Source: an uncultured Anaerolineales bacterium
GTDB taxonomy: Bacteria; Chloroflexota; Anaerolineae; Anaerolineales; UBA11858
Direction of reading: 5' to 3'
DNA length: 64,000 nt
Assembly (NCBI GenBank): GCA_964458115.1
Contig: CAYWIC010000003.1
Location: forward strand, 1,255-65,254
Shown: in pieces, positions 1 through 46,343 of the stretch
How positions within the stretch are numbered: position 1 is the stretch's first letter
Layout: each line of letters starts with the position of its first letter
Notes under the pieces: model-generated
What the model saw: only the letters and a program-made list of their open reading frames with translations
Databases searched by the model: none
What the model was told of the DNA's origin: nothing
Position numbers and translations under genes: made by a program

Positions 1-346
1 CATCGTCACTTGTCCCAAGCCAGCCACTATCGCCCTCTGGCACTCCTGGATTGGCGCCGAATGTCGCTCCGCCTTCTTCGGCCCTATCATCCCAGACCTC
101 AGGTGTTCCGACTGCCTCCTGTGGTTCCTCTGGGGATGATTCGTCCGACGGCTCCACGGCTTCAGTTAGTACGCTCTCGACCGCCTCCGCCTGTTCATAA
201 TCTTGAGTCTCTTCTACGCGGGCACCAGGTTCATGAGCTGCTTCTTCGAGGGTACGCTCTTCAGCGCCCTCAGTTGACTCAACCGCCTCGGGGGTTTCCG
301 GGGCTTCTGGGGCTGCTTCCGATTGGGTGTTTTCCAGCTCATCCAT
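1..346 (-). CDS. Polyacidic protein, paralogue 3 of a tandem family (N-terminal part only; gene continues past the left edge)
   Basis: Absent from the ORF track because it has no stop inside the window. Minus-strand ATG 346-344 follows GGAG (ttttGGAGatagaaATG) and the frame stays open to nt 2. My translation MDELENTQSEAAPE...HEPGARVEETQDYEQAEAVESVLTEAVE aligns with the N-termini of the two genes upstream. Confidence 0.7.
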   Translation of the reverse strand, partial: MDELENTQSEAAPEAPETPEAVESTEGAEERTLEEAAHEPGARVEETQDYEQAEAVESVLTEAVEPSDESSPEEPQEAVGTPEVWDDRAEEGGATFGANPGVPEGDSGWLGTSDD

Positions 347-367
347 TTCTATCTCCAAAACTATTAT

Positions 368-1519
368 TTAAAGTACCTCTTGCTCTTCCAGGTTTGCTCC
401 CGGGAGGCTGCCTCCCTTACCAGGATTTTCAGCTACATTGCTACCTGGGCCAGGAGTTTCCGCAGGACGCGGGTAGGGGCTCGGGCCATCATCGGGATCT
501 TCAGATTTTTTCCCAAAACCAGGGTCTGGATTGATCGCAAAGCTACCATCTGGTTCAGGAGTGAGACCAAAAGCATCATCCTGGATTTGAAAAGTGTTCG
601 CTAGCTCAGGTTCTTCAGCAAAATTGCCATCAACGCCAAGACTGAGGCCGGGCTCGGAATTAAGTTCCAGCTCAAGGTTAGGACCTTCGGGATCAGGGGG
701 GTCATTTGTCTCAGCCACATTGCCATCTACCCCAGGGCTGAGACCTCGGGCATCTCCGAGATCTGAGCGTTCAGGCCCAAGGTTTGGCCCCTTGGGATCA
801 GGAGGATCATTTGTCTCTGCCACATTGCCATCAAACCCAGGGCTGAGGCCGGGCTCGGAATTAAGATCCAGGTCTAGGTTAGGGCCTTCAGGGTCAGGGG
901 GGTCATTAGTTTCAGCTACATGATTGGGCCCTGGGCCACTACCGCCAGGTTCGATAGGGAGTTCGACTTCATTGCCATCAACACCAGGGCTGAGATCTTG
1001 GGAATCACCTTGCTCTTCTTTAGCCGGATTGAACACGGGGAGCGGTAATCCCTCAACCTGTTCTCGACCTGATTCGTCCAAAATGGTTTGTTCTTCGAGT
1101 GCTTCTCCTTCTTGAGCTGAATCTACCAAAGTTATGGGCAACTCTTCTGCGCTGGGAGGGGTCTCGTCATAGCCGATTGCATTAGGCGTTTCCGAATCAT
1201 CTTCTAAAGCTGGCTCAGGTATCGGTAACGGCAACACACCCCCGTGCTCTCCACCTTCATCAGCAGGTTGAGGCAAAGGCAGCGGCAGCTCCCCAACGGA
1301 TGCTGCCTGCGCGGCTTCGACTGCTTCAGACAGTGCACTCTCTACGGCCTCAGCTTGCTCAAAGGTTTGCGTCTCTTCAATTACAGCACCGGGTTCGTGA
1401 GTAACATCATCCAGAGATTGTGCTTCTGCAACCTCTTCGACTTCAACAACTTCCGCTGCCTCAGCGGCATCACCAGCATCCAGGTTATCCTCGGGTTGGG
1501 TGATTTCTAATTCGTCCAT
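368..1519 (-). CDS. Polyacidic Asp/Glu/Pro-rich repeat protein, paralogue 2 (383 aa)
   Basis: ORF track gives 368-1558. I trimmed the start to ATG 1519 (GGAGcatttcaATG), giving MDELEITQPED..., which matches the paralogue N-termini. Internal repeats GLSPGVDGNVAETNDPPDPEGPNL; motifs LPLPLPQPA and LPLPIPEPA. No signal peptide or TM segment seen. Confidence 0.8.
   Translation of the reverse strand: MDELEITQPEDNLDAGDAAEAAEVVEVEEVAEAQSLDDVTHEPGAVIEETQTFEQAEAVESALSEAVEAAQAASVGELPLPLPQPADEGGEHGGVLPLPIPEPALEDDSETPNAIGYDETPPSAEELPITLVDSAQEGEALEEQTILDESGREQVEGLPLPVFNPAKEEQGDSQDLSPGVDGNEVELPIEPGGSGPGPNHVAETNDPPDPEGPNLDLDLNSEPGLSPGFDGNVAETNDPPDPKGPNLGPERSDLGDARGLSPGVDGNVAETNDPPDPEGPNLELELNSEPGLSLGVDGNFAEEPELANTFQIQDDAFGLTPEPDGSFAINPDPGFGKKSEDPDDGPSPYPRPAETPGPGSNVAENPGKGGSLPGANLEEQEVL
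620..925. repeat. Imperfect ~100-bp tandem repeats inside paralogue 2 coding sequence
   Basis: ctgaggccgggctcggaattaag...ggtcaggggggtcatt recurs at 642 and 843, with a diverged copy between them. It encodes the GLSPG.DGN.AETNDPPDP.GPNL units. Confidence 0.7.
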
Positions 1520-1534
1520 TGAAATGCTCCTACT

Positions 1535-1629
1535 AGACCCTAAGGGTTTACTTACCAAATATCAGACGCTAGATGTTTTGTTTTGCAGATATTATGTGTT
1601 TATTGGTAATCTTAAAACCCTTAGGGTCT
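1535..1629. repeat. Intergenic inverted-repeat element filling the gap between paralogues 1 and 2
   Basis: Perfect 15-nt arms AGACCCTAAGGGTTT (1535-1549) and AAACCCTTAGGGTCT (1615-1629), plus inner arms TTACCAA (1552-1558) and TTGGTAA (1603-1609). The same GACCCTAAGGGTTT core recurs at 63239-63267. Confidence 0.8.
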
Positions 1630-1634
1630 CACGT

Positions 1635-3626
1635 TTATGACAAATGCTTCTGAGGGATCTTATAGGCCAGGACATAGGCCAAACCGCCAGGGTTGAGATC
1701 CCTCCAAACAGCGTGAACGACCTTCTGCATCAATTGCTGGTGCGCATCGCTGAGCAGTTCCTCGGACACTGTAGCTTTCGCTTCGCTGAAGCGCTTTTCA
1801 ACCTCAGCTGCAAAGAAATCGAAGGCTTCTTGCGTCATTTCACCCAGGGCAGATTGATCATTCTCAGCAACAGCATAACCGGCGACTGCGGAGCGTGCAT
1901 CCGTCAACAGCGTACCGCGATATTCTTCATCATCGATCGCTTTGCTGATGATCTCAACAACAGATCGCTCAGACGTGTCCATATCCGCGAAATCCGGGGC
2001 GGGCTGTAAGTTTTCATGAATGCCGTCATCTTCCATGGCCTCATTGCCGCTTGGGAATTTCTCATCCCATGCCGGTTTAGGGATTGGCACAGGGAGCACA
2101 CCACCTACTTCATCTGCGCTGGCTCCCATATCTTCTTCCTGAGCCGGTTTGGGGATGGGGATCGGCAGTGTTCCCAACTCTTCACTCTCTGAGCTACCCG
2201 CGACACCCTGCTCTGGTGAAGGGATCGGCTCCATGTTGACACCCAGCTCATCGGCACCACCCCTGCCAGAGACCTCGACCTTGACATCATCAGGGGAAAG
2301 TCCCGTTTGGCCGCTCATATCTGGGGGCGGTGGCGGATCATGAGGGTCGCTAGCTACTTGTGCGGGAACAGGTCCGGGAAGATTGATGGGGGTGGCATCT
2401 TTACTGCCCTCGCCATCATCCTCACCGGAGGATTCGCTCAATTCGGAAGGATCCATCATGCCGGGGTCATCGCGGTCAACGGTGTCATCATCTCCAGCAA
2501 GTTCGAACTCCATGCCTTCCGGCACTTCAGCGACACTTGCGGGGCCGGGATCCCCAGGTTTCTCAGCCATTTCCATCGTTTGGTGAGGTTCTTCCAAGAT
2601 GCCGCTTCCCGGGGGCAAATCATCACGGTTGGGGCCGCTGATGAGCTGCATATCGTCGCCTTCTTCCTCGGCGACCGGGCCAGGCAAGTTGATGGGTGTA
2701 GCTTCATCTTTTCCATCGTCGTCGCCATCGGCAAGTTCGAACTCGATGCCCTCGGGGATCTCGGCCTGCTCAACGATGCCGCGATCTTCCAGCTTCTCTG
2801 CCATCTCGACCGACTGGTGCGGTTCTTCTAAGATGCCGGTACCATCAGGCAAATCATCGCGGTTGGGGCCGCTGATCAACTGCATATCGTCGTCTTCTTC
2901 CTCGGCGACAGGGCCGGGCAGATTGATGGGCGTGGCTTCATCTTTTCCATCGTCGTCGCCATCGGCAAGTTCGAACTCGATGCCCTCGGGGATCTCGGCC
3001 TGCTCAACGATGCCGCGATCTTCCAGCTTCTCTGCCATCTCGACCGACTGGTGCGGTTCTTCTAAGATGCCGGTACCATCAGGCAAATCATCGCGGTTGG
3101 GGCCGCTGATCAACTGCATATCGTCGTCTTCTTCCTCGGCGACAGGGCCGGGCAGATTGATGGGCGTGGCTTCATCTTTTCCATCGTCGTCGCCATCGGC
3201 AAGTTCGAACTCGATGCCCTCGGGGATCTCGGCCTGCTCAACGATGCCGCGATCTTCCAGCTTCTCTGCCATCTCGACCGTTTGGTGCGGTTCTTCTAAT
3301 ATGCCGCTGCCCGGGGGCAGATCCTGGGGATCAGGTCCGCTTTCTGGAACGTCTTCTTCACCAGTCTCGGGGGTGGGGATAGGAACAGGCGTACCGCTGG
3401 TCTGTTCAGCCGTTTCAACAGCTTCACTTAAAGCACTTTCGACTGCTTCGGCCTGTTCGAATGTTTGAGTCTCTTCAACACGGGCACCGGGATCGCTGGC
3501 TGCATCTTGCAGTGCTTGCTCCTCGGCTGCATCCTGGACTTCGCCGGTTTCGGTTATCTCGATTGCCTCGGCGGTATCCGCGCTTTCTGGGGTTTCTTCG
3601 GGTTGGGTAATTTCTAGCTCAGTCAT
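1635..3626 (-). CDS. Polyacidic repeat protein, paralogue 1 (663 aa) with C-terminal helical module
   Basis: ATG 3626 preceded by AAGGAG (aaaaaggagtgaccgATG). N-terminus MTELEITQPEE...ETQTFEQAEAVESALSEAVE is shared with the paralogues. Contains 78-aa tandem repeats (ILEEPHQ.VEMAEKLEDRGIVEQAEIPEGIEFELADGDDDGKDEATPINLPGPVAEEE). The non-acidic C-terminal ~125 aa read VVEIISKAIDDEEYRGTLLTDARSAVAGYAVAENDQSALGEMTQEAFDFFAAEVEKRF. Confidence 0.85.
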   Translation of the reverse strand: MTELEITQPEETPESADTAEAIEITETGEVQDAAEEQALQDAASDPGARVEETQTFEQAEAVESALSEAVETAEQTSGTPVPIPTPETGEEDVPESGPDPQDLPPGSGILEEPHQTVEMAEKLEDRGIVEQAEIPEGIEFELADGDDDGKDEATPINLPGPVAEEEDDDMQLISGPNRDDLPDGTGILEEPHQSVEMAEKLEDRGIVEQAEIPEGIEFELADGDDDGKDEATPINLPGPVAEEEDDDMQLISGPNRDDLPDGTGILEEPHQSVEMAEKLEDRGIVEQAEIPEGIEFELADGDDDGKDEATPINLPGPVAEEEGDDMQLISGPNRDDLPPGSGILEEPHQTMEMAEKPGDPGPASVAEVPEGMEFELAGDDDTVDRDDPGMMDPSELSESSGEDDGEGSKDATPINLPGPVPAQVASDPHDPPPPPDMSGQTGLSPDDVKVEVSGRGGADELGVNMEPIPSPEQGVAGSSESEELGTLPIPIPKPAQEEDMGASADEVGGVLPVPIPKPAWDEKFPSGNEAMEDDGIHENLQPAPDFADMDTSERSVVEIISKAIDDEEYRGTLLTDARSAVAGYAVAENDQSALGEMTQEAFDFFAAEVEKRFSEAKATVSEELLSDAHQQLMQKVVHAVWRDLNPGGLAYVLAYKIPQKHLS
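2587..3288. repeat. Three head-to-tail 234-bp (78-codon) tandem repeats within paralogue 1
   Basis: Units start at 2587, 2821 and 3055. Units 2 and 3 are identical by eye except the last few nt (cgaccgactggtgc vs cgaccgtttggtgc). Degenerate partial copies extend to about 2350 and 3340. Confidence 0.9.
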
Positions 3627-3737
3627 CGGTCACTCCTTTTTGACTAACATTAGCTTTCTCACTTATAGTCGCCGATACCGATAAAGAAGTAACAATTCTT
3701 GAAAATTGATATGCGCGGGACCACGCCCTATACAGAT

Positions 3738-4424
3738 CTATTTTTCAGACGTTTTGATGTTTTGGTAATGCTGAATAAGATCCTGATTCATGGCCTGGAA
3801 TTTGCGAATCTGCTCTTCGGGGAATCGATAACGGGATTTTGCTGTGGCCAGAGCAACCAGGCAATAGGACAGGTTTCCAAGATGGTCGGCGCTGATATGC
3901 CATTTGCCTGTCTGGAAAATGTTGAGCAGGTGATTCAGCGTGAAGCGCCAGACAACCTGGACGGGCTGACGCTGTTGGGGAGGGCGGGCGTTATCCACTT
4001 CGAGGAGATTTTGAAGCTCATCGAAGTTCGGCTCGCTGATCAGGGAAAAATACCCGTAGCGACAGGGGGCTTCGCAAATAAGGCAGCCGCGCTTGCGATG
4101 CAGACGGTTGACTTCTTTGGCGCGGCCTGGGAGTTTTGCCAGTTGGCGCATTTGTTCCTGAAAAGCGCGGCATTCATCTGGAGACGAATCAGCTCTCAGG
4201 GCTGCACGTGCCAGCCCAATTACAAGTTCGCTCTCCGGGTCGCGGCTGGCCTGGTGAAACGCGACGATCAGCCGCGATGCAGCCTCCACCGCCAGGGGCC
4301 AGGCTTCCCCAAAATCCCCTTTCACAGAAGGCAGTTCAGCCACCCGTTTGGGCGGGATTAAAGAGAGCAGGTTGAGGTAGATGATGGTCTGTTTAACTTG
4401 TGCGGCGGAGATTTTGTTACTCAT
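3738..4424 (-). CDS. Hypothetical helical protein (228 aa) with Cys cluster CLICEAPC
   Basis: ORF track 3738-4430 starts at GTG. ATG 4424 sits 5 nt after GGAG (tGGAGtgacaATG) and 12 nt after the stop of the upstream ATPase gene. No family recognised. An antisense ORF 3699-4361 exists, but it lacks operon context. Confidence 0.6.
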   Translation of the reverse strand: MSNKISAAQVKQTIIYLNLLSLIPPKRVAELPSVKGDFGEAWPLAVEAASRLIVAFHQASRDPESELVIGLARAALRADSSPDECRAFQEQMRQLAKLPGRAKEVNRLHRKRGCLICEAPCRYGYFSLISEPNFDELQNLLEVDNARPPQQRQPVQVVWRFTLNHLLNIFQTGKWHISADHLGNLSYCLVALATAKSRYRFPEEQIRKFQAMNQDLIQHYQNIKTSEK

Positions 4425-4436
4425 TGTCACTCCAGA

Positions 4437-7229
4437 CTACTGCAATTTCTGCATCGGTGTATAAGCCACTTTGACCCAGGAAGCCATATCATCCTGAATT
4501 CCGCAAACGATGGCCTGTCCAACTTTGAGACGGGCGATGACCTTGGCTTGATCCTCGGTCAGGGCTAGGGCACCTGCCATGGCCTGACGGTCGTCGGCAG
4601 CCACCAAGCGGTGGATGATCTTGAGATTGGTATTCTTGATGGCGTCAGGCACCAGCTTGGCGGGCACCTGGTCGATGATGGCCATACCCTGGCCATAGGC
4701 GCGGATCTCGGCCAGGATGTCGGCGAACATCTCGCCCATTTTGGCCTGAGGATTGGCTGAGTCGGAGCGCTGAGGGGCGGAGCGCAATACGCGGTGGGCC
4801 TCCTCGATGATCGCCAGATGGCGCAGCTCACTGGATTCGGGGGAGCCAAGACTCTCATGTTGGGCCTGGCGGTATTCATACATGAAGTTCAACAACAGTG
4901 CCATGGTGAAGCATTTATCAGCGTCATCGCCGAGATACTGCAAATTGACCACCACCGGGCGGTCGAAGAGATCGGCCCAGGGCGTAGAGAAAGGCTGGTC
5001 GTAGAGCTGGCCTTTCCAGCCGCGCAGCAAGCTGCCGATGCGCGTGCGCAAAGCGGCAGTGATATTGGCCGTAATGCGCTCTTCGTAACCCTTGCCGCGA
5101 ACCAATCCAGAAATGCGGTTGTGGAGCTGTTCCAGGGTGGGTCGGCCGATGCCATCGGGGGGCAATTTTTCTTCCAGCCAGCCCTGGCTGTCATAGAGAT
5201 CGACTAGGGCTTCCTCGAGAATCACGGGCAGGATTTCGTACATGGGGAAGCTGGCATTGAAGATCGATTTCAACCGGTCCAGGTGAGGCATCACCTGGGT
5301 GGTAGCGCCGGGGATCTGGACGATATCGAAGGGATTGAGTTGCAACTGTCCCAGAGGCTGGCCACCCCATTCACTGCGTCCTGGCATATAGACAGCGATC
5401 TCACGGTCAAAGGTTTTCGCCTTGTTGTAGGCCAGCGCCAACTGCACGTACTCGTCCTTGGCTGGCTCGATGACCAGGAAGTTCTTGCCGCTTTCCATCA
5501 ATTCGCTGATGATGCGACGGCAGGTGTTGGATTTGCCGCTGCCGGTGATACCGGTAATAAAGATATGTCGCGTCAGGGAATCGAGATCGACATCGTAGCC
5601 CAATCCTTCGATCTCTTCACCGCCCTCCAAAATATTGCCCAGGCTGAGAAGATTGGCTGGATCTTCCGGCACCGGAGGGTTGAGGCTGAAGAAGGCCGTG
5701 GGCTGCATGGGCATGCCTGGCATTTCACGGAGGGGCAGGTTTGCCAGTAACGAAAGTTCTTCAGTGTTCATAGGGGTGGTCAACCCCTCGAAGGCCCCCC
5801 CAATAGGATGTTGAATAGAAGTGCCTTCTTCAGGAGCAAATAACTTCAGCGGTGGCTGATAGAAGGTATCCAAAGCCACCTGGGCTTGACCATCCCATAC
5901 CGGGGAAAGGTCGTGGACGCGCATGGGCTCGAATGATGTCTTTTCGCCAGAGACCAGGGCTTTGAGCTGCGCCTGGCCTTGAGCAGCGGTCTCGCCCTGG
6001 TCGCTGATCAGGTAGACGCCGACATTCCAGCAGCCCTGAGATTTGGCAGCTTCGAAACGCTCCACGGTTTGAGTGAGCAGTTTCTCGCAGGCCTCAGCAT
6101 GACGATTGAGGTACTCACGTCCAAAGGAGAGTGACTCGCTGGAGGTTGCTCCCTCAGAGCTGGACGTCCCTGAGGAACGCCCAGTAGTCTGCGACTCGCT
6201 TTGTGAAGCTCCCCTAACAGCGGAACTGCTGGTGGAAGGGAGCAGTTGGCCGAACATGCCCAACATGCCGGATAGCAAGAAGGGTCCGCCAGTAGCAACC
6301 AACAAGGCCGATACCGCCCCGAAACCAACGCCTTTGAGTCCCTTGGTCAGGCCACGGGATTTGGCCATTTCTGTACCCAAGACACCCTTGCTGGCACCTT
6401 TGGTCTGACTTTCCGACCTGCCTGTGGTTTGCCCTGAGGATACAGATTCGCTTTCTGTTCGAGAAAGGCTCTCCGAGGTGCCGCTGCTGTGGCTGCGGTT
6501 GAGGGTCGCTTTGGTGAAGGCGTGCACCTGGCCGGAAAGGGTGTGACAAGACGAAATGATCTCCCCGACTTCGCTCTCGGGCATCGGCTCGGCAACGACC
6601 ATATAGAGATAGGGCTTGCCGCGCAGCCCGCGCATAAAGCGGTCTAGGCTCTGAGGGTGGGAGGCCGGTCTCTCGGCTTTCTTGATCGAAGGGATGCCGG
6701 TAAAGGCGCGCGCGTGGCGGTAGGTGCTCAGGGGGACATGCACGCGCTGGGCGATCTGATGGTAATCATCAACCAGCTTGACGCGCGTCCCAGGCCAATT
6801 GGAGCACAGGAACTGCCCTAACTGATCAGCGAACAGGCGCGGCTGGGTGCCGTGCTCCCGTGCGACCACCCCGATATAGATGCGGTTGCGCATCCCATCG
6901 CTGGAGATCATGAAGACCAGGGCAAAGCGCGGGTCGTGACAGGCTGCCAGCGAGGTCTGGATGGCAGTGAAGTACTCGCTCATATCCTCGGTGACCGGCT
7001 TGCCGACCTGCTCTAATTCCAAAATTGCCAGATCAGGCTGCTGTGAGATTTCTTCATCTCCCGAAATGCGCACATAATCATTCTCGAAAATTGGGCCATC
7101 TAAATAATCACGACCCAGCGTGAAGAGCAAGGACTTGGAGAGGGCGTCGCCAGCCTCCATGAGCATTTCAGGTGTCAAGTCTTCCGGGATGGCAGAATCG
7201 GTTTGGAGTATGAGGGATTCATCAGTCAT
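4437..7229 (-). CDS. 930-aa P-loop NTPase: C-terminal HerA/FtsK-superfamily (DUF87/COG0433-like) ATPase with ~470-aa N-terminal extension, Ser/Thr-rich tracts and a hydrophobic hairpin
   Basis: Walker A HIFITGITGSGKSNT (DNA 5552-5529) and Walker B LRHLAIIEEAHRVL. Pre-ATPase motif TEELSLLANLPLREMPG is typical of HerA-like ATPases. aa 245-368 read SHSSGTSESLSRTESESVSSGQTTGRSESQTKG...VGFGAVSALLVATGGPFLLSGMLGMFGQLL...STSSSAVRGASQSESQTTGRSSGTSSSEGATSSES. Confidence 0.85.
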   Translation of the reverse strand: MTDESLILQTDSAIPEDLTPEMLMEAGDALSKSLLFTLGRDYLDGPIFENDYVRISGDEEISQQPDLAILELEQVGKPVTEDMSEYFTAIQTSLAACHDPRFALVFMISSDGMRNRIYIGVVAREHGTQPRLFADQLGQFLCSNWPGTRVKLVDDYHQIAQRVHVPLSTYRHARAFTGIPSIKKAERPASHPQSLDRFMRGLRGKPYLYMVVAEPMPESEVGEIISSCHTLSGQVHAFTKATLNRSHSSGTSESLSRTESESVSSGQTTGRSESQTKGASKGVLGTEMAKSRGLTKGLKGVGFGAVSALLVATGGPFLLSGMLGMFGQLLPSTSSSAVRGASQSESQTTGRSSGTSSSEGATSSESLSFGREYLNRHAEACEKLLTQTVERFEAAKSQGCWNVGVYLISDQGETAAQGQAQLKALVSGEKTSFEPMRVHDLSPVWDGQAQVALDTFYQPPLKLFAPEEGTSIQHPIGGAFEGLTTPMNTEELSLLANLPLREMPGMPMQPTAFFSLNPPVPEDPANLLSLGNILEGGEEIEGLGYDVDLDSLTRHIFITGITGSGKSNTCRRIISELMESGKNFLVIEPAKDEYVQLALAYNKAKTFDREIAVYMPGRSEWGGQPLGQLQLNPFDIVQIPGATTQVMPHLDRLKSIFNASFPMYEILPVILEEALVDLYDSQGWLEEKLPPDGIGRPTLEQLHNRISGLVRGKGYEERITANITAALRTRIGSLLRGWKGQLYDQPFSTPWADLFDRPVVVNLQYLGDDADKCFTMALLLNFMYEYRQAQHESLGSPESSELRHLAIIEEAHRVLRSAPQRSDSANPQAKMGEMFADILAEIRAYGQGMAIIDQVPAKLVPDAIKNTNLKIIHRLVAADDRQAMAGALALTEDQAKVIARLKVGQAIVCGIQDDMASWVKVAYTPMQKLQ

Positions 7230-7327
7230 GGGAAATATCCAATATGGAGTAGGTAAAATGGTATCAGGTGATTAGTTCATGGGGTTCAGGTTTTGTGTAA
7301 CCCTAATGCCCAATACCTGCTACCCAA

Positions 7328-8917
7328 TCAACGAATACTCAAAGTAAACATTCGATCCCCGAAACGAATTTCGTCGCCTACTTGCAAATATTGCGGCAAT
7401 TGGGGTTGGATCCGCTCTCCATTCACAAACGTACCGTTGGTGCTGCCCAAATCGACGATTTCAGGAGCCTCGGCCGTTTGGCGCAGTTCAGCGTGGTTGC
7501 GGGAAACCTTGTCGCTCTCCAGCCAGACCTGGCATTCGCGAGCGCGGCCCACTTTGGTTACACTGAAGTTCAATGGATAAACTTTGCCATCGGGTGAGAT
7601 TAACTGCAATCCAGTCTTGGAGACAGGATCATTTGATCGGTCAGAATCAACCTTAGGAGGTGGTTCGATAACTAGGCTGGCGCCGGGTTCCAGGGTTCCC
7701 ATGGAGCTACCATATGCCAGCCCAACCCCGCGCACTACGATCTCGTCGGGGTTATCTGCCAATACAACTTTACCCTCCCCAAAGCGTTGCCTTAGATGCC
7801 GCACGATACTGAACAATTGCACTCCACCCCCCACCAAAGCCACCTGACCGATATCTTGATCGGCCAGCCCGATAGCATCGATGGCCTTGACAATCATAGA
7901 CTGGAAGGCCTGATCTAAATGTCCGGCGATCCGATTGAATGCCTCTTGATCGAGCTTGACCAGGCGTCGAAAGACCTGGCCATCCCGTAGCACCAGGGTG
8001 ATCATACGTTGGGCGTTGATTTCACCCTCACCATCGCTACTGTGCAGCAACCGGCGACTAAGTGATTCCTTCAGCCGCTGGGCGTAGATGCGCATAGTCG
8101 CCATTGCAGAAGGATCATCAGCCAACGCAGATGCGGGCACATTGAGCTCATCGGCCAGGTGTTTGGCCATCTCGGCATCATAAAGACCGCCACCAAATGG
8201 CTCACCATAGCGTCCTAGGTAGAGCAGCTCGCCGGTTCGGGGATCAAGTTGACCGGCGACGATGTCGGTGGTGCTGCCGCCCACATCGACGATCAGCGTC
8301 ACGCCACCACGGCTGCTATTCAAGAGGCCCTGGCGCTTTAGGCTCAAAATGGCACCCTCGGGTTCAGGGACAAATGCAATTTGGGAGTGAACGTTTTCCG
8401 GAAAGCAGGTCAAGACCAGGGCTTTGAAATCTTCCAGGATCGCCCCTTTTTGATCATGATTCCAATGCACCGGGTAGGCAAAGGCAAAGCGAACACTTTC
8501 ATCGAAAGCGCTGGCCCGCCACTTTTCCGCCCGAATCTGCTCAACCACAACCTCGAGCAACATGCGAGTGAACTCCAAGGCCTGGGCATGGGTGTAGCGC
8601 TTCTGGTGCGGCAGCGGGTTGGCTTCTAAATGCGCGCCAATGCAGGGTTTGAAATATTCTCGCACGCGCTCGCGGGCATTCTCATCCTCCAGTTGACCCT
8701 GTGAGACCTCCCCAAAGCATTCAACAGCCGACCCTTCAGGCGTCAGGGTCAGAATTGCGGGTAATTTTCTCTCGGAGAAACTGGTCAATGGCGAGGGTTG
8801 AGGATCCCCCAAAATGTGGATCACATTGCCATCCAGGCGATATCCCACCCGGTACAATCGCCAGTTCGTCGCCCCGCAATCCAAGGCGAAGAGTGTCACT
8901 TGTTTGCCATTGGCCAT
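7328..8917 (-). CDS. Hsp70/actin-fold (ASKHA) ATPase fused to a C-terminal FHA domain (529 aa)
   Basis: Phosphate-1 FALDCGATNWR, phosphate-2 LIVDVGGSTTDIV and adenosine motif VALVGGGVQL are present. C-terminus VGRARECQVWLESDKVSRNHAEL...IVDLGSTNGTFVNGERI is an FHA signature (G-R...S-x-x-H...N-G). Confidence 0.85.
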   Translation of the reverse strand: MANGKQVTLFALDCGATNWRLYRVGYRLDGNVIHILGDPQPSPLTSFSERKLPAILTLTPEGSAVECFGEVSQGQLEDENARERVREYFKPCIGAHLEANPLPHQKRYTHAQALEFTRMLLEVVVEQIRAEKWRASAFDESVRFAFAYPVHWNHDQKGAILEDFKALVLTCFPENVHSQIAFVPEPEGAILSLKRQGLLNSSRGGVTLIVDVGGSTTDIVAGQLDPRTGELLYLGRYGEPFGGGLYDAEMAKHLADELNVPASALADDPSAMATMRIYAQRLKESLSRRLLHSSDGEGEINAQRMITLVLRDGQVFRRLVKLDQEAFNRIAGHLDQAFQSMIVKAIDAIGLADQDIGQVALVGGGVQLFSIVRHLRQRFGEGKVVLADNPDEIVVRGVGLAYGSSMGTLEPGASLVIEPPPKVDSDRSNDPVSKTGLQLISPDGKVYPLNFSVTKVGRARECQVWLESDKVSRNHAELRQTAEAPEIVDLGSTNGTFVNGERIQPQLPQYLQVGDEIRFGDRMFTLSIR

Positions 8918-8984
8918 GAAATCTCGCTTGTTGATACGTACGAATTTATTTCGTTAGTCCTCTGAATAAACAAACCAGAGTTTC

Positions 8985-9037
8985 CGCCGGAATATAAGGG
9001 GATGGTGGTTTCACCACCATCCCCTTATATTCCGGCG
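8985..9037. repeat. Perfect 25-bp-stem / 3-nt-loop hairpin in the divergent kinase / FHA-ATPase intergenic region
   Basis: CGCCGGAATATAAGGGGATGGTGGT-ttc-ACCACCATCCCCTTATATTCCGGCG, verified base by base. A related hairpin lies at 34296-34344. Confidence 0.85.
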
Positions 9038-9249
9038 AGAACCTCGCGCGCCTTTTTCAGCAGAACCGTTCGTGATGTATGAAACTAATCTTATTATACA
9101 CACAGATTCGTTCATAATTCTCAAAAATCCCAACAAAATACTTACAGAATTGGAATCGTACGGGGCATTCCCGAGTGAATTCTTGTATAATAATTACGGG
9201 AACGATCTAGCCATCGAACACAGACATCGTGACTGCGGGAGGCACGCAT

Positions 9250-11100
9250 ATGGCAAGTCTAACCGGGACAATGCTAGGGAAGTACCAAATCATCGAGCGC
9301 TTAGGTCGCGGGGGTATGGCAGAAGTCTACAAAGCCTATCATCCTCAACTCGAGCGCTACGCGGCAGTCAAAGTGCTGCATGGATTCCTAGCTGAGGGGC
9401 AAGATTTTCAAGCCCGCTTTCAACGCGAGGCCAAGGCCATCGCCGCGCTGCGGCATCCCAACATCGTGCAGATATACGACATCGATACGTACGATGAGAA
9501 CTATTTCATGGTGATGGAATTCATCGATGGCGGCACCCTCAAAGACCGCTTGCTCCAAGCCAGTGGGCCCTTGGCCATCCGCGAGATGGCGCATATTTTC
9601 CGGGAGATTGCCTCCGCCTTGGATTATGCCCATCGCCAGGGAGTGCTGCACCGCGATATCAAACCCGCCAACGTGCTCCTCGATCAATCTGGACGAGTTG
9701 TGCTGACCGATTTTGGCATCGCCCGCATCGTTAGCGAGACGCAGTTCACCGTCACGGGAACCCTGGTGGGCACCCCCGCCTATATGTCCCCAGAACAAGG
9801 CATGGGGCTGAACATCTCCACCCCCAGCGATATCTATTCTTTAGGCATCATCCTTTACGAAATGGTCACTGGCAAAGTTCCGTTCGATGCCGATACCCCC
9901 CTAGCTGTGATCCACAAGCATATCAACGAACCGCTGCCCTCACCGCGCACCATCCGGGATGACATCCCCCAGGTTTTAGAAACCGTCATCGTCAAAGCCC
10001 TGGCCAAGGAGCCGGGTGAACGCTTCCAGTCCGCGGCTGAACTGGTCCAAGCAGCCGAGGCCGCCTTTGCCGATTTCACCAAGGTGACCATGGCTGAAAC
10101 GCAAATCGAAACTCCAAAGTGGGATGCTCAACCCGACCCCGAAGTTGCTCCTGAACCCGAGCAAACCATTGCCTCCAGGTCAACTATCGCCATGGAACCT
10201 GAGGAAAGCTCGCCACCAACCCTCACATCGAAACCTACAGTCGCTATGCACCAGGAGGATGACATCGCCGAGAAAGCCACTGTGGCCATGGAGCCTGAGC
10301 CAGAACCTACACCTCAACCCCCAGCAGTGGCGCCCATCTCGAAACCCGAGCCGGTGGCAGTACCAAAGCCGACAGTGGCAAAACCAAAAGTCAAACCGCT
10401 GCCCATTATCCTCGGGATCGTCGCAGTAGCCGCCATCGCTGGGCTGCTGGTGTGGGGCATCCCTAAACTTCCCACAGGAGACGGTGGAGAGAGTGAGGCA
10501 CCCATTGCTGAGTGCGAGTCCATAGAGACTTGCCAGGCTTTGGCGGAAGAACGCTGGGGCATTGAGGATCTCGAGGGTGTTATCCATGCCTTAGAGACCG
10601 CCATTGGCTTCGTCCCAGAAGACCAGCATCCCCCTCACGCTCACCTTTGGTGCCAGAGGGGAGAAGCCTTGGCCGCACTAGACCGCATCGATGAAGCGAT
10701 AGGAAGCTTCGAAGAGTGCATGGGTTGGACTGAGGATAATCCCGAATTCGAAGATATTCGCGTTTTCGCGCAAACTCAACTTGAATCTTTGACGACTGGA
10801 GCAAGCGATTGCGGTGCCCCCGAAGAATGCCATGCCCAGGCAGAGGAACATATGAACAGCGGGAACTTCGAGGGTGCAATCACATCAATTGATACCGCCC
10901 TTAGCAATGTGCCAGAAAACGAACACCCCGCCTTCGCGCAATACTGGTGCTTGAAAGGTGAAGCCCATTTGGCCTTGGAACAATTCGAAATGGCCCTGTG
11001 GAGCTTCGAAGATTGCCTGACCTGGACAGAGGGGGATCCCGGTCTGGAGGAATTGCGCGTCTTAGCCCAAGAGCAGATCGATATGATCAATAACCGCTGA
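9250..11100 (+). CDS. Transmembrane Hanks-type Ser/Thr protein kinase with duplicated Cys-containing TPR-like ectodomain
   Basis: GRGGMAEVYKA...AVK, HRDIKPANVLL, DFGIAR and GTPAYMSPE motifs. Pro-rich linker, then TM PLPIILGIVAVAAIAGLLVWGI, then two ~95-aa repeats. Start moved from GTG 9229 to ATG 9250 (GGGAGGcacgcatATG). Confidence 0.9.
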   Translation: MASLTGTMLGKYQIIERLGRGGMAEVYKAYHPQLERYAAVKVLHGFLAEGQDFQARFQREAKAIAALRHPNIVQIYDIDTYDENYFMVMEFIDGGTLKDRLLQASGPLAIREMAHIFREIASALDYAHRQGVLHRDIKPANVLLDQSGRVVLTDFGIARIVSETQFTVTGTLVGTPAYMSPEQGMGLNISTPSDIYSLGIILYEMVTGKVPFDADTPLAVIHKHINEPLPSPRTIRDDIPQVLETVIVKALAKEPGERFQSAAELVQAAEAAFADFTKVTMAETQIETPKWDAQPDPEVAPEPEQTIASRSTIAMEPEESSPPTLTSKPTVAMHQEDDIAEKATVAMEPEPEPTPQPPAVAPISKPEPVAVPKPTVAKPKVKPLPIILGIVAVAAIAGLLVWGIPKLPTGDGGESEAPIAECESIETCQALAEERWGIEDLEGVIHALETAIGFVPEDQHPPHAHLWCQRGEALAALDRIDEAIGSFEECMGWTEDNPEFEDIRVFAQTQLESLTTGASDCGAPEECHAQAEEHMNSGNFEGAITSIDTALSNVPENEHPAFAQYWCLKGEAHLALEQFEMALWSFEDCLTWTEGDPGLEELRVLAQEQIDMINNR

Positions 11101-39992: not shown

Positions 39993-40022
39993 ATTGGGAA
40001 AGGGGGAAAAATAGGACGTTGA

Positions 40023-41795
40023 TTATTCTACGGGAATCGCCTCTAACTGCTCGACCATCTCCTTGATCACATCAAAGCCGCCTTGCCAGAACTCAGGCTT
40101 GGTGATGTCCAAACCGGCCTCAGCGCAAATTTCAACCGGGGAGGCTGAACCACCTGCCTCCAAAATCTTGATGTAACGCGGCTTGAAGCTATCGCCCTCA
40201 GCTTTGAATTGCTTGTACAGCGATAGGACGAGCAATTGTCCAAAGGCATAGGCATAGACATAGAAGGGATAATGGTAGAAGTGGGGAACTGAGACCCATT
40301 CCCATTTGAATTCATCGCTCAGCTCAACAGCATCCCCAAAATGCTTCTCGATGTTCTCCATGTACGCTTCGGAAAGTTGGTCAATGGTCGCGCCTTCAGC
40401 AACCATATTGTGGGCAGTCACTTCGAACATGGCGAAGAAGGCCTGGCGCATGATGGTGGCATAGGCATCATCAACCTGGCGGAAGAGGATATCGCGACGC
40501 ACCGCAGGATCATCTTCTATCTCAAGCAGACGATCAATCAATAACATTTCTGCAAACGTGGAAGCGTTCTCTGCCATGGGCAGTGAGGAGTGGAATGTGA
40601 AGACATTATGATCGAAAGCCAGCATGGCATGGATAGCATGCCCCAATTCATGGGCTATCGTGCCCACATCGGAAATCTTGCCTTGATAATTGATTTTGAC
40701 GTAAGGTGTGTGGCCGGGCACAGTTGACGCACAGAAAGCACCGCTCTGTTTGCCTTTTCTAACTTCACTGTCGACATGATCGTCATCGAATACTTTCTTG
40801 GCCAACTCAGCAATACGTGGTTCAAAATCTTCGAAAGCATTCAAGGTCAGTTTGACGGCTTCATCATACTCAAAGGTTTTATCCGCCTCAGCTACGGGTG
40901 CATAGATATCATATCGACGCAGCTTTTCCACACCTAACCATTTGGCTTTGACATTGAAATAGCGCTGGAAGATATCAGCATTCTTTTCACAGACATCCAG
41001 AAGAATTTTGACGACATCATCCGGCACATCATTGACTAAATTGCGGGCAGAGATTGGTGTGGCATAGTTGCGCAACTCGATATTTTCGGCCTGCCAGTCG
41101 CGGATCAGTGTCTGGTACATCTGACCCAAAATGGGACCATCATCACCATAGATTTTGTACATTTCCTGATAAGCCGCTTCACGTAAGTCGGGATCAGCCC
41201 CCTGCACGTAAGTAGTCAATTCGCCACGCGTCATTTCTTTGACTTCGCCATCGATTTCGAGTTTAAAAACGTAGCGGTTGGTGATGGCATCGTATAAGGT
41301 CACCAATGCCTGAGCCCCAGTAACATCTTTGATATTGACGATTTTCTCTTCGGGCTCTGTAAGAATATGGGGCTTAAAATGTCGCATCTCTTCTAACCAA
41401 TACGTGTAACCGTCAGAGATGGACATAAGTTTTTCAGCAACCTCGACATCCAGGTTTTTCCACCAAAGGGAGAAAAACAGGGTCTGGTTCTGCAATTTGG
41501 CCATGAACTGCTGAACCTTGGCATACAACGCCTGAGCATCCTGACTTTGGGTGTCAGCGGAAAACCACAAGCTAGGATAAGCATATAGGTTGTAAGCAGC
41601 TTCAGTAGCACCTTCCAAGGCTTTGATGGCATCCATGAAATCCTCGAAATCGATTTCGGGGGTCAATTTGTCACGAAAGGCCTCAAATTCAGCAGCTTTT
41701 GCCTCTAGATCCTCGAAAGCCTTTTCGATCTCCGGCCCATCGTGGGAGGGGAACAAATCTTCCAGGCTCCAGGGAGATAATTTATATTCGCTCAT
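40023..41795 (-). CDS. pepF: M3B oligoendopeptidase F
   Basis: HELGHAIH zinc motif and overall PepF-like length. Start trimmed to MSEYKLSPWSLEDLFP (ATG 41795). Confidence 0.9.
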   Translation of the reverse strand: MSEYKLSPWSLEDLFPSHDGPEIEKAFEDLEAKAAEFEAFRDKLTPEIDFEDFMDAIKALEGATEAAYNLYAYPSLWFSADTQSQDAQALYAKVQQFMAKLQNQTLFFSLWWKNLDVEVAEKLMSISDGYTYWLEEMRHFKPHILTEPEEKIVNIKDVTGAQALVTLYDAITNRYVFKLEIDGEVKEMTRGELTTYVQGADPDLREAAYQEMYKIYGDDGPILGQMYQTLIRDWQAENIELRNYATPISARNLVNDVPDDVVKILLDVCEKNADIFQRYFNVKAKWLGVEKLRRYDIYAPVAEADKTFEYDEAVKLTLNAFEDFEPRIAELAKKVFDDDHVDSEVRKGKQSGAFCASTVPGHTPYVKINYQGKISDVGTIAHELGHAIHAMLAFDHNVFTFHSSLPMAENASTFAEMLLIDRLLEIEDDPAVRRDILFRQVDDAYATIMRQAFFAMFEVTAHNMVAEGATIDQLSEAYMENIEKHFGDAVELSDEFKWEWVSVPHFYHYPFYVYAYAFGQLLVLSLYKQFKAEGDSFKPRYIKILEAGGSASPVEICAEAGLDITKPEFWQGGFDVIKEMVEQLEAIPVE

Positions 41796-41908
41796 AATCG
41801 TTTCTAACCTTCCTATTTTTATATTTTCTTTCACAACGAGACGTAATTATACTCGATTAGGATTACCCTCCCACGACGAAACGGGTTCAGTGTGCAAAGA
41901 AAAATAAA

Positions 41909-42493: not shown

Positions 42494-42495
42494 GA

Positions 42496-43056: not shown

Positions 43057-43084
43057 AATTCACTCCCTTTGGTCTGTCTGAAGT

Positions 43085-43597: not shown

Positions 43598-43631
43598 CTT
43601 TCGTTAAAATTGCCACACCCTAATGGGTGAC

Positions 43632-43713: not shown

Positions 43714-43729
43714 CAGCGATTATAATTGA

Positions 43730-43770
43730 AAGAGTGGAGCCTGAATATAGCGGCTCCACTCTTTGATTTT
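43730..43770 (+). terminator. Intrinsic terminator after tRNA-Leu
   Basis: AAGAGTGGAGCC-tgaatatagc-GGCTCCACTCTT-TGATTTT. Confidence 0.75.
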
Positions 43771-46336: not shown

Positions 46337-46343
46337 AAAAAGC

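Follow-up and report, generated by a model that had tools for sequence, protein, structure and literature searches.

At one end of a 64,000-nucleotide stretch of DNA from an uncultured Anaerolineales bacterium (hereafter the window), three consecutive genes encode long polyacidic proteins that begin almost identically and continue very differently. This arrangement raises the question of whether the shared beginning is a genuine module or an effect of biased composition and, if genuine, what the acidic proteins are connected to by it. The comparative analyses reported here revealed a strictly N-terminal module genetically linked to a four-gene ATPase/kinase-sensing machine. Both are previously undescribed, and no description of the module or of its gene cluster was found in the literature. 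The machine probably handles or exports the module-bearing proteins. In our preferred reading, given a probability of roughly 40%, the module is a docking tag and a small basic adaptor passes polyanionic clients to an ATPase, with phospho-threonine marks controlling the process and non-classical export as its probable purpose.

A common head on three acidic proteins

The three genes lie on the same (reverse) strand, as originally predicted, and start with MTELEITQPE (p1), MDELEITQPE (p2) and MDELENTQSE (p3). The first, p1 (positions 1635-3626), is a 663-aa open reading frame whose module (aa 1-72; 3411-3626) scores 72 bits against the module HMM. The second, p2 (368-1519, ATG at 1519), encodes 383 aa, including its module (aa 1-69; 1313-1519), and the exact protein is present on two public contigs. 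The window holds the first 115 codons of p3 (1-346), with the module at aa 1-66 (149-346). Leftward extension was provided by L001, a 9.8-kb contig of the same organism, in which p3 is full-length (7218-9398; 726 aa) and carries four beta-rich repeats of about 75 aa in its C-terminal half. The array, which had been thought possibly longer, ends there at three genes, p3 being followed by a lipoprotein-like gene.

The N-terminal ends share a module of about 60 aa, and the block initially noticed, EPGA(R/V)(V/I)EETQ(T/D)(F/Y)EQAEAVES(A/V)L(S/T)EAVE, is seen in all three proteins. This likeness is not a compositional artefact: the heads align with Smith-Waterman scores of 167-217, whereas 1000 shufflings of their residues gave 46-52 +/- 7 (best shuffle at most 81), so that z = 17-23. 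An exhaustive profile search, also proposed at the outset, retrieved the module in 186 protein clusters (E <= 1e-3, 1.84 billion representatives), and in all 150 matches listed of these clusters it begins at or before residue 35, as befits a true, position-specific N-terminal module. No relative was detected in Pfam, NCBIfam or the PDB. The logo built from 235 unique modules is dominated by E (1.00), A/S (0.99), E (0.99), P (0.94) and T (0.91) around the core L-D-D-A-T-x-E-P-G-A-x-V-E-Q-T-G-D-F/Y-x-Q-A-E-A-V/I-E/Q, and the module is predicted to fold, past a Pro-Gly turn, into an amphipathic helix of acidic character.

Over their whole length, p1 contains 26.5% D+E and 4.8% K+R (net charge -144) and p2 24.3% and 2.3% (net charge -84), within the range of 21-27% D+E found among such proteins. 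Behind the module, the bodies of all three proteins are polyacidic, Pro-rich and disordered; Uversky windows class p1 as disordered except at the C-terminus. The reported recurrence of LPxPIPxPA-type motifs in p1 and p2 is real, P-phi-P-phi-P motifs being enriched over shuffles in p1 (7 against 0.05 expected) and p2 (2 against 0.06, p = 0.002). In p2 they read LPLPLPQPA/LPLPIPEPA and are accompanied by GLSPGVDGNVAETNDPPDPEGPNL repeats, and p2-type bodies bear GLSPGVDGN repeats. A tandem repeat in p1 detected by TRF (2560-3306; 3.2 copies of 234 nt, or 78 aa) has copies matching at 94%, each unit with DLPxG(S/T)GILEEP and EATPINLPGP motifs, and the version of p1 on L001 is one 78-aa unit shorter (585 aa). 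In agreement with the first description, no hydrophobic segment was found, the maximal 19-residue Kyte-Doolittle mean being 0.75 in p1 and 0.68 in p2. The folded C-terminal domain of p1 (about 110 aa; 1638-1970) resembles the NHLP clan, with scores under the cut-off against NF038399 (27 bits) and PF14407 (21.5 bits); the latter matches 10 of 150 family representatives, with a best E of 1.9e-19. In p1-type proteins this domain is followed by NPGG and a tail that is nearly invariant rather than hypervariable past the GG (VVHAVWRDLNPGGLAYVLAYKIPQKHLS).

Across the family, bodies range from 100 to 1700 aa, the median pI is 4.07, the median Cys content is 0% and TM segments are absent. The TPINLP motif occurs in 90 of 265 proteins, TPGDKDGDDDSGKF-like motifs recur, and LysM domains, Big_1 domains or beta-repeats are found in some members. 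The initial view of paralogues diverging into different bodies is only half retained. The bodies do differ, but each belongs to a distinct, conserved orthologous type, the types keep their order across genomes, and p1, p2 and p3 are not free-drifting paralogues.

The gene cluster that accompanies the module

The three genes belong to a cluster conserved in Anaerolineales, composed of a receptor Ser/Thr kinase, an Hsp70-FHA protein, an ATPase, a small basic protein (p228) and then one to seven module genes. With p228 as seed, module genes were found downstream in 33 of 35 genome loci, a divergent giant homologue taking their place in the two others. With the module as seed, p228 was upstream in eight of ten metagenome loci, the two contigs without it each being shorter than 3 kb. 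The only families common across loci are p228 (55), Hsp70-FHA (52), the ATPase (50), the module (41, by BLAST) and the kinase (33); none of them is a polytopic membrane or channel protein. Homologues are therefore not scattered away from the ATPase genes, and this tight linkage, together with z = 17-23, dispels both doubts attached to the original prediction, namely artefact and scattering. That prediction is borne out as regards an N-terminal module linked to the ATPase and p228, and fails as regards drift among three paralogues and a longer array.

Adjacent to p1, p228 (3738-4424, reverse strand) is a 228-aa protein with homologues in 102 clusters, all from Anaerolineales/Chloroflexota. Its AF2 model is all-helical (pLDDT 91.5) and matches no fold in the PDB or BFVD, and no similarity to a known enzyme or RRE was detectable. 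It is basic (pI 9.3; family median 8.8), with a GRAKxxNRLHRKKGC patch, and its charge is opposite to that of the module. Four invariant cysteines (C114, C117, C121 and C188, as CxxCxxxC...C plus His) suggest a metal or Fe-S site. Additional p228 paralogues occur within arrays, immediately upstream of module genes; modules behind the B-type paralogue constitute a separate subtype, DATY(D/E)A..., without the otherwise 94%-conserved Pro, a co-variation that mere block duplication could explain. One source labels a p228 homologue PopZ, but this annotation stands alone and unverified, and Pfam gave no PopZ match.

The next gene (4437-7229, reverse strand) encodes a 930-aa HerA/VirB4-like P-loop ATPase. 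Besides an N-domain and, at the C-terminus, a DUF87 (Pfam) ATPase domain, it has an insert rich in Ser/Thr (aa ~244-369), which encloses a hydrophobic stretch that is Gly-rich and invariant (aa 300-330). Walker motifs are readable, and identity is at least 59% over 540 aa across 120 clusters. HerA, CedD and VirB4 models of NCBIfam and PADLOC match it below cut-off, the NCBIfam VirB4 models at 16-18 bits for cut-offs of 325-590. Foldseek places TrwK/VirB4 at the top, then HerA, from a low-confidence model (TM ~0.2). Its relatives are the translocation ATPases HerA, CedD, VirB4 and TraD.

Further along, a 529-aa protein (7328-8917, reverse strand) joins an Hsp70/actin-fold ATPase (Pfam HSP70, 1.5e-11), without substrate-binding domain, to a C-terminal phospho-threonine-binding FHA domain (Pfam, 1.6e-20) whose PDB relatives include those of OdhI/GarA. 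Catalytic and pThr-binding residues are conserved, both ATP-binding (ASKHA) and pThr-binding positions being retained in 45 orthologues. The divergently transcribed receptor-type Ser/Thr kinase (9229-11100, forward strand; Pfam Pkinase 3.3e-56 plus TPR) comprises a kinase domain, one TM segment and a TPR-like ectodomain, and is present in 23 of the 35 long genome loci.

A candidate route for the acidic proteins

In the proposed mechanism, p1, p2 and p3 would be client genes of the cluster and their module a docking tag, recognised by p228, encoded directly upstream, as a dedicated adaptor or chaperone. Through p228 the disordered, polyanionic, Pro-rich bodies would reach a hexameric HerA/VirB4-type ATPase. 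The transmembrane kinase may gate the machine, its phospho-threonine marks being read by the FHA domain of the Hsp70-like ATPase and possibly placed on the Ser/Thr-rich insert, the conserved module Thr, or both. Most likely, the acidic proteins would then be exported non-classically or deployed at the surface, their different C-terminal domains acting outside the cell. The adaptor role is put forward because p228 is basic and its clients acidic, paralogues of it precede modules, and the subtypes match; the four cysteines, however, would suit an enzyme or redox sensor no less than a chaperone.

The comparative evidence leans towards ATPase targeting and possibly export, with no channel protein at hand. 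Export is favoured because in 14 loci lipoprotein genes occur among the genes of the array (including directly after p3), because some clients carry LysM, Big_1 or beta-repeat domains, and because clients lack TM segments, have a median Cys content of 0% and vary in repeat copy number between samples. Conversely, disordered proteins are Cys-poor and repeat-variable at any location, the LysM variant is similar to that of YgaU/gpX, a type found in cytoplasmic proteins too, and the hydrophobic stretch of the ATPase is short, Gly-rich and located in a region of pLDDT ~30.

Several known systems share parts of this organization. Type VII secretion (PE/PPE-PGRS, LXG; EspG; EccC/EssC) combines a conserved helical N-domain with polymorphic, repeat-rich, low-complexity bodies, multigene arrays, an adjoining dedicated binding-protein gene, no Sec signal, an FtsK/HerA-superfamily ATPase and an FHA domain. 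The present ATPase, unlike those, has one P-loop domain (DUF87/HerA) instead of three FtsK/SpoIIIE domains, the FHA domain belongs to another protein, which is Hsp70-like, and the substrates are hyper-acidic and disordered. Membership was rejected, with no WXG100/PE/PPE/LXG homology and no EccB/D/E or EsaA/EssA/EssB. Type IV membership was likewise rejected (VirB4 scores far below cut-off; VirB3/6/8/VirD4 genes absent), although TrwK/VirB4 match the low-confidence ATPase model over nearly its full length. The logic is also similar in Dot/Icm, whose adaptor complex (DotM/IcmSW-DotL) reads Glu-rich 'E-block' signals, a basic adaptor on a hexameric translocation ATPase reading an acidic signal; in the present cluster the signal would be N-terminal and a defined 60-aa domain. 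Type III triads of effector, class I chaperone and ATPase also have an N-terminal targeting region, a small chaperone gene beside the client gene and a hexameric ATPase as receiving end, but here the polarity of charge is reversed (basic adaptor, acidic client), the unmatched all-helical fold of p228, with its four invariant Cys, is unrelated, and injectisome genes are absent. In type VI secretion, PpkA-Fha1-PppA controls the machine by threonine phosphorylation, and a receptor-type Ser/Thr kinase and an FHA protein are similarly encoded beside an ATPase-driven machine; the present cluster lacks type VI structural genes and a conserved phosphatase gene, and has its FHA domain in one polypeptide with an ASKHA ATPase. 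Membership in HerA defence systems was rejected; PADLOC matches were below cut-off and no system was assigned.

Alternative readings

The acidic proteins could instead remain in the cytoplasm as scaffolds or tethers, the module docking on filaments or oligomers of the actin-fold ATPase, as MamJ does on MamK and the FtsZ tail on FtsA, or they could form a phospho-regulated polyanionic hub or condensate remodelled by the HerA-like ATPase. We regard this as unlikely, while recognising what it accommodates: the lack of signal peptide, TM segment and conserved channel, an ASKHA-fold partner without substrate-binding domain that weakly matches ParM_N and PRTRC-D, and multivalent short motifs such as TPINLP which, with FHA domain and kinase, suit multivalent assembly. 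In magnetotactic bacteria, MamJ is an acidic repetitive protein tethered to the actin-like MamK filament, and the parallel extends to hyper-acidic Pro/Glu-rich tandem repeats of variable number partnering an actin-fold ATPase. Sequence homology and magnetosome genes are nevertheless missing, the ATPase concerned is Hsp70-like, bears an FHA domain and matches Hsp70 best, not MamK, ParM or MreB, and the cluster adds a HerA-like ATPase and a kinase. The PopZ label would also fit a scaffold, were it more than one source's unverified annotation, unmatched in Pfam, and the interspersed lipoproteins, LysM/Big_1 domains and kinase ectodomain would be left without a role. A RiPP-like modification, in which the module is a leader recruiting an enzyme (p228 as a Cys4 metalloprotein, plus radical-SAM enzymes in some loci) to the repeated motifs or the NHLP-like C-terminus, seems very unlikely to us. 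Tandem paralogues with a long conserved head and variable remainders do recall Nif11/NHLP precursor arrays of the prochlorosin type, as do the NHLP-clan domain and NPGG of p1, the CxxCxxxC...C plus His of p228, and three radical-SAM-like genes in the arrays of L011, L019 and L021. The latter are confined to a few related loci and absent from the window, and RiPP precursor membership was rejected: the module is neither NHLP nor Nif11, the NHLP-like domain of p1 is C-terminal, bodies reach hundreds of residues and are not peptides, the post-GG tail is invariant, no maturase or peptidase-ABC exporter is conserved, and p228 resembles no known enzyme or RRE.

Membership of the ATPase in the FtsK-HerA-VirB4 group of DNA-handling motors, together with the very high negative charge density of the clients, could also point to nucleic-acid mimics that regulate, or are pumped by, a DNA pump, for example as phage-conflict decoys or in DNA transfer. 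This is more doubtful still, since nucleases, relaxases and other DNA-processing partners are absent, as is any PADLOC system, the context is ordinary chromosome, and Pro-rich motifs and folded C-terminal domains would be unexpected in such proteins. PHROGs gave no phage-family match for the acidic proteins or p228, and weak or uninformative ones for the ATPase, Hsp70-FHA and p3. The reading we find least credible is that cation or mineral binding is primary, the bodies buffering or nucleating Ca, Mg or Fe beside loosely related neighbours: it leaves unexplained a strictly N-terminal conserved module whose linkage to p228, the ATPase and Hsp70-FHA is near-obligate. The high D+E content of the clients and the TPGDKDGDDDSGKF-type motifs that speak for such binding may be properties of cargo, compatible with the docking-tag model.

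Gene organization and the N-terminal module of the acidic proteins

Seven relevant genes are located at the left end of the window, six of them on the minus strand: those of a 529-aa Hsp70-like ATPase with an FHA domain (Hsp70-FHA; 7328-8917), a 930-aa DUF87 ATPase (4437-7229), a basic 228-aa Cys4 protein (p228; 3738-4424) and three neighbouring polyacidic proteins, p1 (663 aa; 1635-3626), p2 (383 aa, counted from the ATG giving MDELEITQPE; 368-1519) and p3, which starts at 346 and runs off the window. The seventh gene encodes a divergently oriented Ser/Thr kinase (9229-11100, plus strand). From their shared strand and the 6-115-nt gaps between them, we infer only that the minus-strand genes could be co-transcribed; a promoter and terminator scan of positions 1-9400 gave a result no better than shuffles.

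The first ~70 residues of p1, p2 and p3 display 52-55% identity in pairwise alignments, with a nearly invariant EPGA.VEETQ..EQAEAVES.L.EAVE block. The shared N-terminal block initially recognized from the sequence alone in these consecutive genes is confirmed by local alignment scores of 167-217, against 46-52 +/- 7 for shuffles of fixed composition (z = 17-23). Acidity alone therefore does not account for the similarity, a compositional artefact being ruled out by this shuffling together with the positional conservation of the block. p1 and p2 contain 24-27% D+E, 2-5% K+R and 10-14% Pro, have net charges of -144 and -84 respectively, and are predicted to be disordered by charge-hydropathy analysis, save for the last ~110 residues of p1. 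No hydrophobic segment was found in either of them, the 19-residue hydropathy maxima being just 0.75 (p1) and 0.68 (p2), in agreement with the original prediction that they have neither a signal peptide nor a TM segment; this sets them apart from Sec/Tat-exported and membrane proteins. The LPxPIPxP-type motifs reported as recurring in both proteins also exceed chance, with seven P-phi-P-phi-P motifs in p1 and two in p2 where ~0.05 is expected. In addition, p1 encloses a 234-nt repeat in 3.2 copies (2560-3306).

The exact p2 protein is present on two public contigs, including the 9.8-kb contig L001, which we attribute to the same organism because p2 and p228 are identical to those of the window. 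Despite this identity, p1 of L001 (4172-5929) has 585 aa, exactly one 78-aa repeat fewer than the 663 aa of the window, the repeat number thus being polymorphic between samples. The full p3 deduced from L001 has 726 aa and is composed of the N-module, an acidic Pro/Gly-rich body sharing GLSPG(V/F)DGNVA motifs with p2, and four ~75-aa beta-rich repeats of the pattern KIYSDEDGNPVVVD...TGKYYFVTE. The array had been suspected to be longer, but p3 is followed on L001 by a lipoprotein-like gene (9377-9796), with a signal sequence and Cys, and not by a fourth paralogue. This gene belongs to a family of 20 ORFs from 14 loci, located within N-module arrays or immediately behind them in the same orientation, which combine a Cys-containing signal peptide, an E/P-rich linker and a domain of the pattern F.A....I..GEC..L.W.V.G (other members in L015, 14461-15369; L025, 10070-10945 and 11420-12295; L035, four copies; L038, L039 and L046).

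An exhaustive search of 1.84 billion cluster representatives with a six-module profile retrieved 186 proteins at E <= 1e-3, of which 43 reached E <= 1e-10. The exhaustive search was needed, as a three-sequence profile used in a word-indexed homologue search gave just 3 hits; a 38-sequence alignment had no stretch conserved enough for a collection scan, for which the six-sequence alignment was used instead. In all 150 listed hits, from proteins of 63-909 aa, the match begins within the first 35 residues, which establishes the module as a position-specific head. Across 235 unique modules (conservation in brackets), the core reads L(0.90)-[DE]-D-A(0.82)-T(0.91)-x-E-P(0.94)-G-A-x-V/I-E(1.00), continued by Q-T/S(0.73)-G/Q-D-Y/F(0.82)-x-Q(0.80)-A/S(0.99)-E(0.99)-A-I/V(0.94)-E/Q(0.98)-x-A-L/F, and in more than half of them a P-x-P-x-P motif follows ~15 residues later. 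Read from the sequence, the second half of the module has the i, i+3/4 hydrophobic spacing of a putative amphipathic helix with an acidic face. Median values for the family are 4.07 for pI and 0% for Cys content, and only 2 of 265 members exceed, marginally, a hydropathy of 1.6 indicative of TM segments. The N-module is a conserved, strictly N-terminal acidic module carried by otherwise disordered polyanionic proteins. Searches of Pfam, NCBIfam, PADLOC and PHROGs revealed no family for it, and its profile has no sequence relative in the PDB.

A gene cluster shared among Anaerolineales

Contigs carrying distant p228 members (37-49% identity) repeat the order Hsp70-FHA, ~930-aa DUF87 ATPase, p228 and large unannotated genes, with a Ser/Thr kinase near the gene run; these large genes have the same N-module start and (I/L/T)P(I/L)x(I/L)P motifs. 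A p228 alignment scan of one genome per GTDB species retrieved 49 loci, all from Anaerolineales-type MAGs, several of which harbour two or three of them. An ORF and HMM census covered the 35 p228-seeded loci in which 1.5 kb or more of sequence lies downstream of p228. N-module genes, one to seven of them and on the same strand, are present in 33 of these loci and a kinase in 23, the two loci without N-module genes having instead a 1468-aa or 1766-aa ORF with a divergent module-like N-terminus. Conversely, p228 is located upstream, usually with the ATPase too, in 8 of 10 metagenome loci seeded with the module, the remaining two being contigs shorter than 3 kb. All-against-all clustering of the ORFs of 55 loci showed that just five families are widely shared: p228 (55 loci), Hsp70-FHA (52), the ATPase (50), the kinase (33) and the N-module proteins (41 by BLAST, more by HMM). 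The linkage of the N-module is near-obligate and extends to four partners: the receptor kinase, the FHA-bearing ASKHA ATPase, the translocase-type ATPase and the basic Cys4 protein p228. The similarity of the modules beats shuffles and their linkage to the ATPase genes, one of the points raised by the original prediction, holds from both starting points, as opposed to a scattered distribution.

Homologues of p228 form 102 clusters, all unnamed, and every labelled one is assigned to Anaerolineales, Anaerolineae or Chloroflexota. The protein has a pI of 9.3 (family median 8.8), invariant residues C114, C117, C121, C188 and H165, and a conserved patch GRAKxxNRLHRKKGC. Its AlphaFold model is confident and all-helical (pLDDT 91.5, pTM 0.88) and has no match in the PDB or BFVD at E <= 1e-3 (TM at most 0.26); likewise, its profile has no sequence relative in the PDB and no family in Pfam, NCBIfam, PADLOC or PHROGs. 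Additional p228 paralogues are found inside arrays, directly upstream of N-module genes. Modules following the B-type paralogue constitute their own subtype, DATY(D/E)A.AHVEQSG..E.SE.VET, which is devoid of the otherwise 94%-conserved Pro. This is consistent with a cognate pairing of paralogue and module subtype, although block duplication would explain the pattern as well.

Over its first 540 residues, the ATPase shows at least 59% identity among the best 120 clusters, and its Walker A (GITGSGKS) and Walker B (AIIEEAH) motifs are legible. It matches DUF87, whereas the HerA, CedD, VirB4 and TraD models match far under their cut-offs. Between two conserved regions, an insert (aa 244-369) displays Ser/Thr/Glu-rich low-complexity tracts of variable sequence and maintained composition, surrounding a Gly-rich hydrophobic stretch that is almost invariant, KGxLGT...GGPFLLSGMLGMFGQLLP. 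AlphaFold modelled the full-length protein poorly (mean pLDDT 57.7, below 50 in the insert), and the fold matches obtained with this model are only a lead: Foldseek ranked first TrwK/VirB4 of the R388 type IV system, over approximately the full length (E = 2.7e-8, TM ~0.2), and next HerA of anti-phage complexes, over the ATPase half alone. The NCBIfam "serine-rich protein" model NF033849 also matches aa 332-890 with 82 bits (cut-off 650), a possible sign of a sister family made up of Ser-rich HerA-like ATPases.

Among 45 orthologues, the Hsp70-like protein retains the ASKHA phosphate and adenosine motifs, and the pThr-binding residues of its FHA domain (GR / SR.H / NG) are at least 95% conserved. 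Pfam scores are 73.7 bits for the FHA domain (cut-off 20.7) and 191 bits for Pkinase, and the closest solved FHA relatives include OdhI/GarA. In the kinase, whose ectodomain is TPR-like, HRD and DFG motifs are legible and a single TM segment is present. The residues for catalysis and for pThr binding are conserved throughout, and the canonical FHA residues with a nearby Hanks-type kinase point to an FHA-mediated phospho-threonine signalling module. In one sub-clade, the gene of a ~213-221-aa protein, which matches the Hsp70-FHA query presumably through an FHA domain, separates p228 from the first N-module gene (L010, 4054-4695; L013, 9783-10430; L014, 9629-10270; L020, 2799-3464; L061, 8324-8965).

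The N-module proteins, hereafter clients, are typed and not random. Iterated searches on 116 N-module ORFs of the loci identified 15 with the p1 C-terminal domain, 14 with p3 beta-repeats (6-7 copies) and 28 with p2-type repeats, and the gene order p1-type, p2-type, p3-type occurs in L001, L021, L041 and L047. Short motifs cross types and genomes: TPINLP, mostly in the form (D/E)EATPINLPGP, in 90 of 265 proteins, LSPDDVK in 34 and DPPPPPD in 31. They look like functional linear motifs and not drift. The last ~110 residues of p1 correspond to a domain of the NHLP clan; in p1 itself the similarity (aa 555-614) is under cut-off (27.1 vs 40 bits and 21.5 vs 48 bits), and PF14407 is matched by 10 of 150 family representatives, down to E = 1.9e-19. 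This domain ends with a nearly invariant tail, VVHAVWRDLNPGGLAYVLAYKIPQKHL. Neither it nor the p3 repeats matched any PDB chain by profile or sequence, and the similarities of p3-type repeats to DUF4585, WW, NlpE and DUF4124 were rejected as short fragments of unrelated Pfam families reflecting beta-hairpin noise.

Several variations on this organization were observed. In single ~20-kb loci, one ATPase gene can be followed by as many as nine N-module genes together with two p228 paralogues (L019 with L041 on contig CAZLNX010000006.1; L021 with L047 on contig JADHTJ010000018.1; L058). Stand-alone genes of 113-140 aa encode the NHLP-like p1 C-terminal domain alone, with the tail ...VWRDLNPGGLAYILAYKIP.KYL (L037, 12625-12966, and L041, 15013-15435, both on the minus strand); they are found at the far end of long arrays and adjoin an ECF-sigma-like gene, a 506-aa gene and a ~211-aa FHA protein. 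Directly after p228, some loci (L049, 9731-15031; L050, 5857-10263; L045, 5619-8909, the latter with AIPAS repeats as well) encode giant proteins of 1096-1766 aa, in which a LysM-type motif, Y.V..GDTLS.IAL..YGNA..W..IY.AN...IG.NPN.I..GQ...IP, comes after a divergent N-terminus resembling the module. The LysM motifs of these giants are real, and their subtype is no proof of an extracellular location.

Known systems and possible roles of the cluster

The logic of the cluster resembles that of the T7SS, with PE/PPE or LXG substrates, EspG and EccC, of the effector-chaperone-ATPase triads of the T3SS, and of Dot/Icm, with acidic signals read by a basic adaptor. By the defining features compared, it does not belong to the T7SS: the ATPase has one P-loop region (aa ~545-925), assigned to DUF87 by Pfam, in place of the tandem FtsK/SpoIIIE domains of EccC/EssC (FtsK_SpoIIIE scores 17.2 bits, cut-off 24), and a single hydrophobic stretch in mid-protein, unlike the N-terminal TM segments of EccC/EssC. 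WXG100-superfamily substrates are absent according to Pfam and the PDB profile search, no Pfam match to WXG100, PE, PPE or LXG being found in p1-p3 or in 150 family members, and EccB/D/E or EsaA/EssA/EssB are absent among the families conserved over the 55 loci. Membership of the T4SS was rejected on sequence models and partner genes: the VirB4-type equivalogues of NCBIfam reach 16-18 bits (cut-offs 325-590), and VirB3/B6/B8, a coupling protein and a relaxase are not among the conserved neighbours. An assignment to HerA-NurA repair or to SIR2-HerA, DUF4297-HerA or MADS was similarly rejected, HerA models scoring 20-50 bits against cut-offs of 800-970; PADLOC matched the ATPase alone (mad8/HerA) and no partner protein, and no nuclease was found among the conserved neighbours by clustering of the 55 loci. 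Neither PADLOC nor PHROGs gave a defence-system or phage assignment. As a unit, the five-part cluster has no annotation in Pfam, NCBIfam, PADLOC or PHROGs, and full-text searches of the literature yielded no description of it.

We propose, with a probability of about 0.4, that the N-module is a docking tag for which p228 would act as adaptor, considering their charge complementarity, adjacency and subtype co-variation, that the ATPase would be the receiving motor, and that the kinase-FHA pair would gate the process, with a leaning towards export of the clients or their deployment at the surface. Candidate pThr sites are the 91%-conserved Thr of the module and its T/S-x-x-F/Y site, whose pT+3 aromatic resembles the GarA/OdhI self-recognition site, as well as the ATP(I)NLP motifs and the insert of the ATPase. 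Kinase-FHA control is typical of secretion machines, and this is one reason for the leaning towards export. Others are that the ATPase relatives are translocation motors and its hydrophobic element is invariant, that the arrays of 14 loci contain scattered lipoprotein genes with E/P-rich linkers, among them the gene after p3, that some clients carry LysM, Big_1 or beta-repeat domains, and that the clients lack Cys and vary in repeat number. The strongest counter-argument, which keeps our confidence modest, is that the ORF clustering of the 55 loci revealed no conserved polytopic membrane protein that could serve as a channel.

The same observations can be arranged differently. The actin-fold ATPase could hold the clients as a cytoplasmic scaffold or tether, which we regard as unlikely; it would dispense with the missing channel, and would leave the interspersed lipoproteins, the LysM and Big_1 domains and the kinase ectodomain without a role. 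Leader-guided modification is improbable: three consecutive radical-SAM-like genes with CxxxCxxC motifs do occur inside N-module arrays of a few related genomes, just upstream of p1-type or other N-module genes (L011, 10514-14042; L019, 8109-11631; L021, 11275-14776), and are absent from the window, where neither maturase nor exporter was found. An NHLP/Nif11 RiPP precursor was rejected on the grounds that the N-module has no Pfam or NCBIfam match, that the NHLP-like part of p1 is C-terminal and under cut-off, and that the 15-aa tail after NPGG is nearly invariant across about 30 proteins and not a hypervariable core. The polyanionic bodies could also recall DNA mimicry, which seems very improbable to us, or have cation binding as their primary role, the least credible of these options.

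To return to the docking-tag proposal, a broader and more doubtful version of it would see in the cluster an unrecognised protein-handling system of Anaerolineales, in which a VirB4/HerA-derived hexameric motor, once a DNA pump, would now move or deploy hyper-acidic disordered proteins. The clients would be chosen by a new N-terminal acidic helical signal via a new-fold Cys4 adaptor, and the transmembrane Ser/Thr kinase would switch the motor on via the FHA-Hsp70-like ATPase. If so, the cluster would represent a specialised secretion or assembly pathway of a new type, outside the numbered systems, in a monoderm-like, filamentous and uncultured lineage belonging to an abundant, yet almost uncultured order of anoxic waters and sediments. 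Three novelties would be combined: an N-terminal targeting domain, an adaptor fold and a use of FtsK/HerA/VirB4 motors on polyanionic disordered proteins and not DNA. Such a pathway would account for arrays that reach seven or more hyper-acidic genes in a locus, with several loci per genome, and would offer a clean natural model for phospho-threonine-gated handling of intrinsically disordered clients. Even without export, the cluster constitutes a well-delimited testable unit. The initial reading of the acidic proteins as head plus cargo gains support from comparative genomics, with the acidic body as a putative cargo. Judged from gene content, the N-module proteins represent a new protein family within a new, well-delimited five-part system of uncultured Anaerolineales.

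Other features of the window

The rest of the window consists of ordinary chromosomal genes. A 650-aa protein (50262-52214, plus strand) associates seven FG-GAP repeats with a C-terminal sortase domain, an unusual fusion unconnected with the N-module finding. The G+C content falls to 0.46-0.48 at ~40000-48000, compared with ~0.52-0.57 elsewhere, and this region, which contains the sole tRNA gene of the window (tRNA-Leu, 43632-43714), may be an island.
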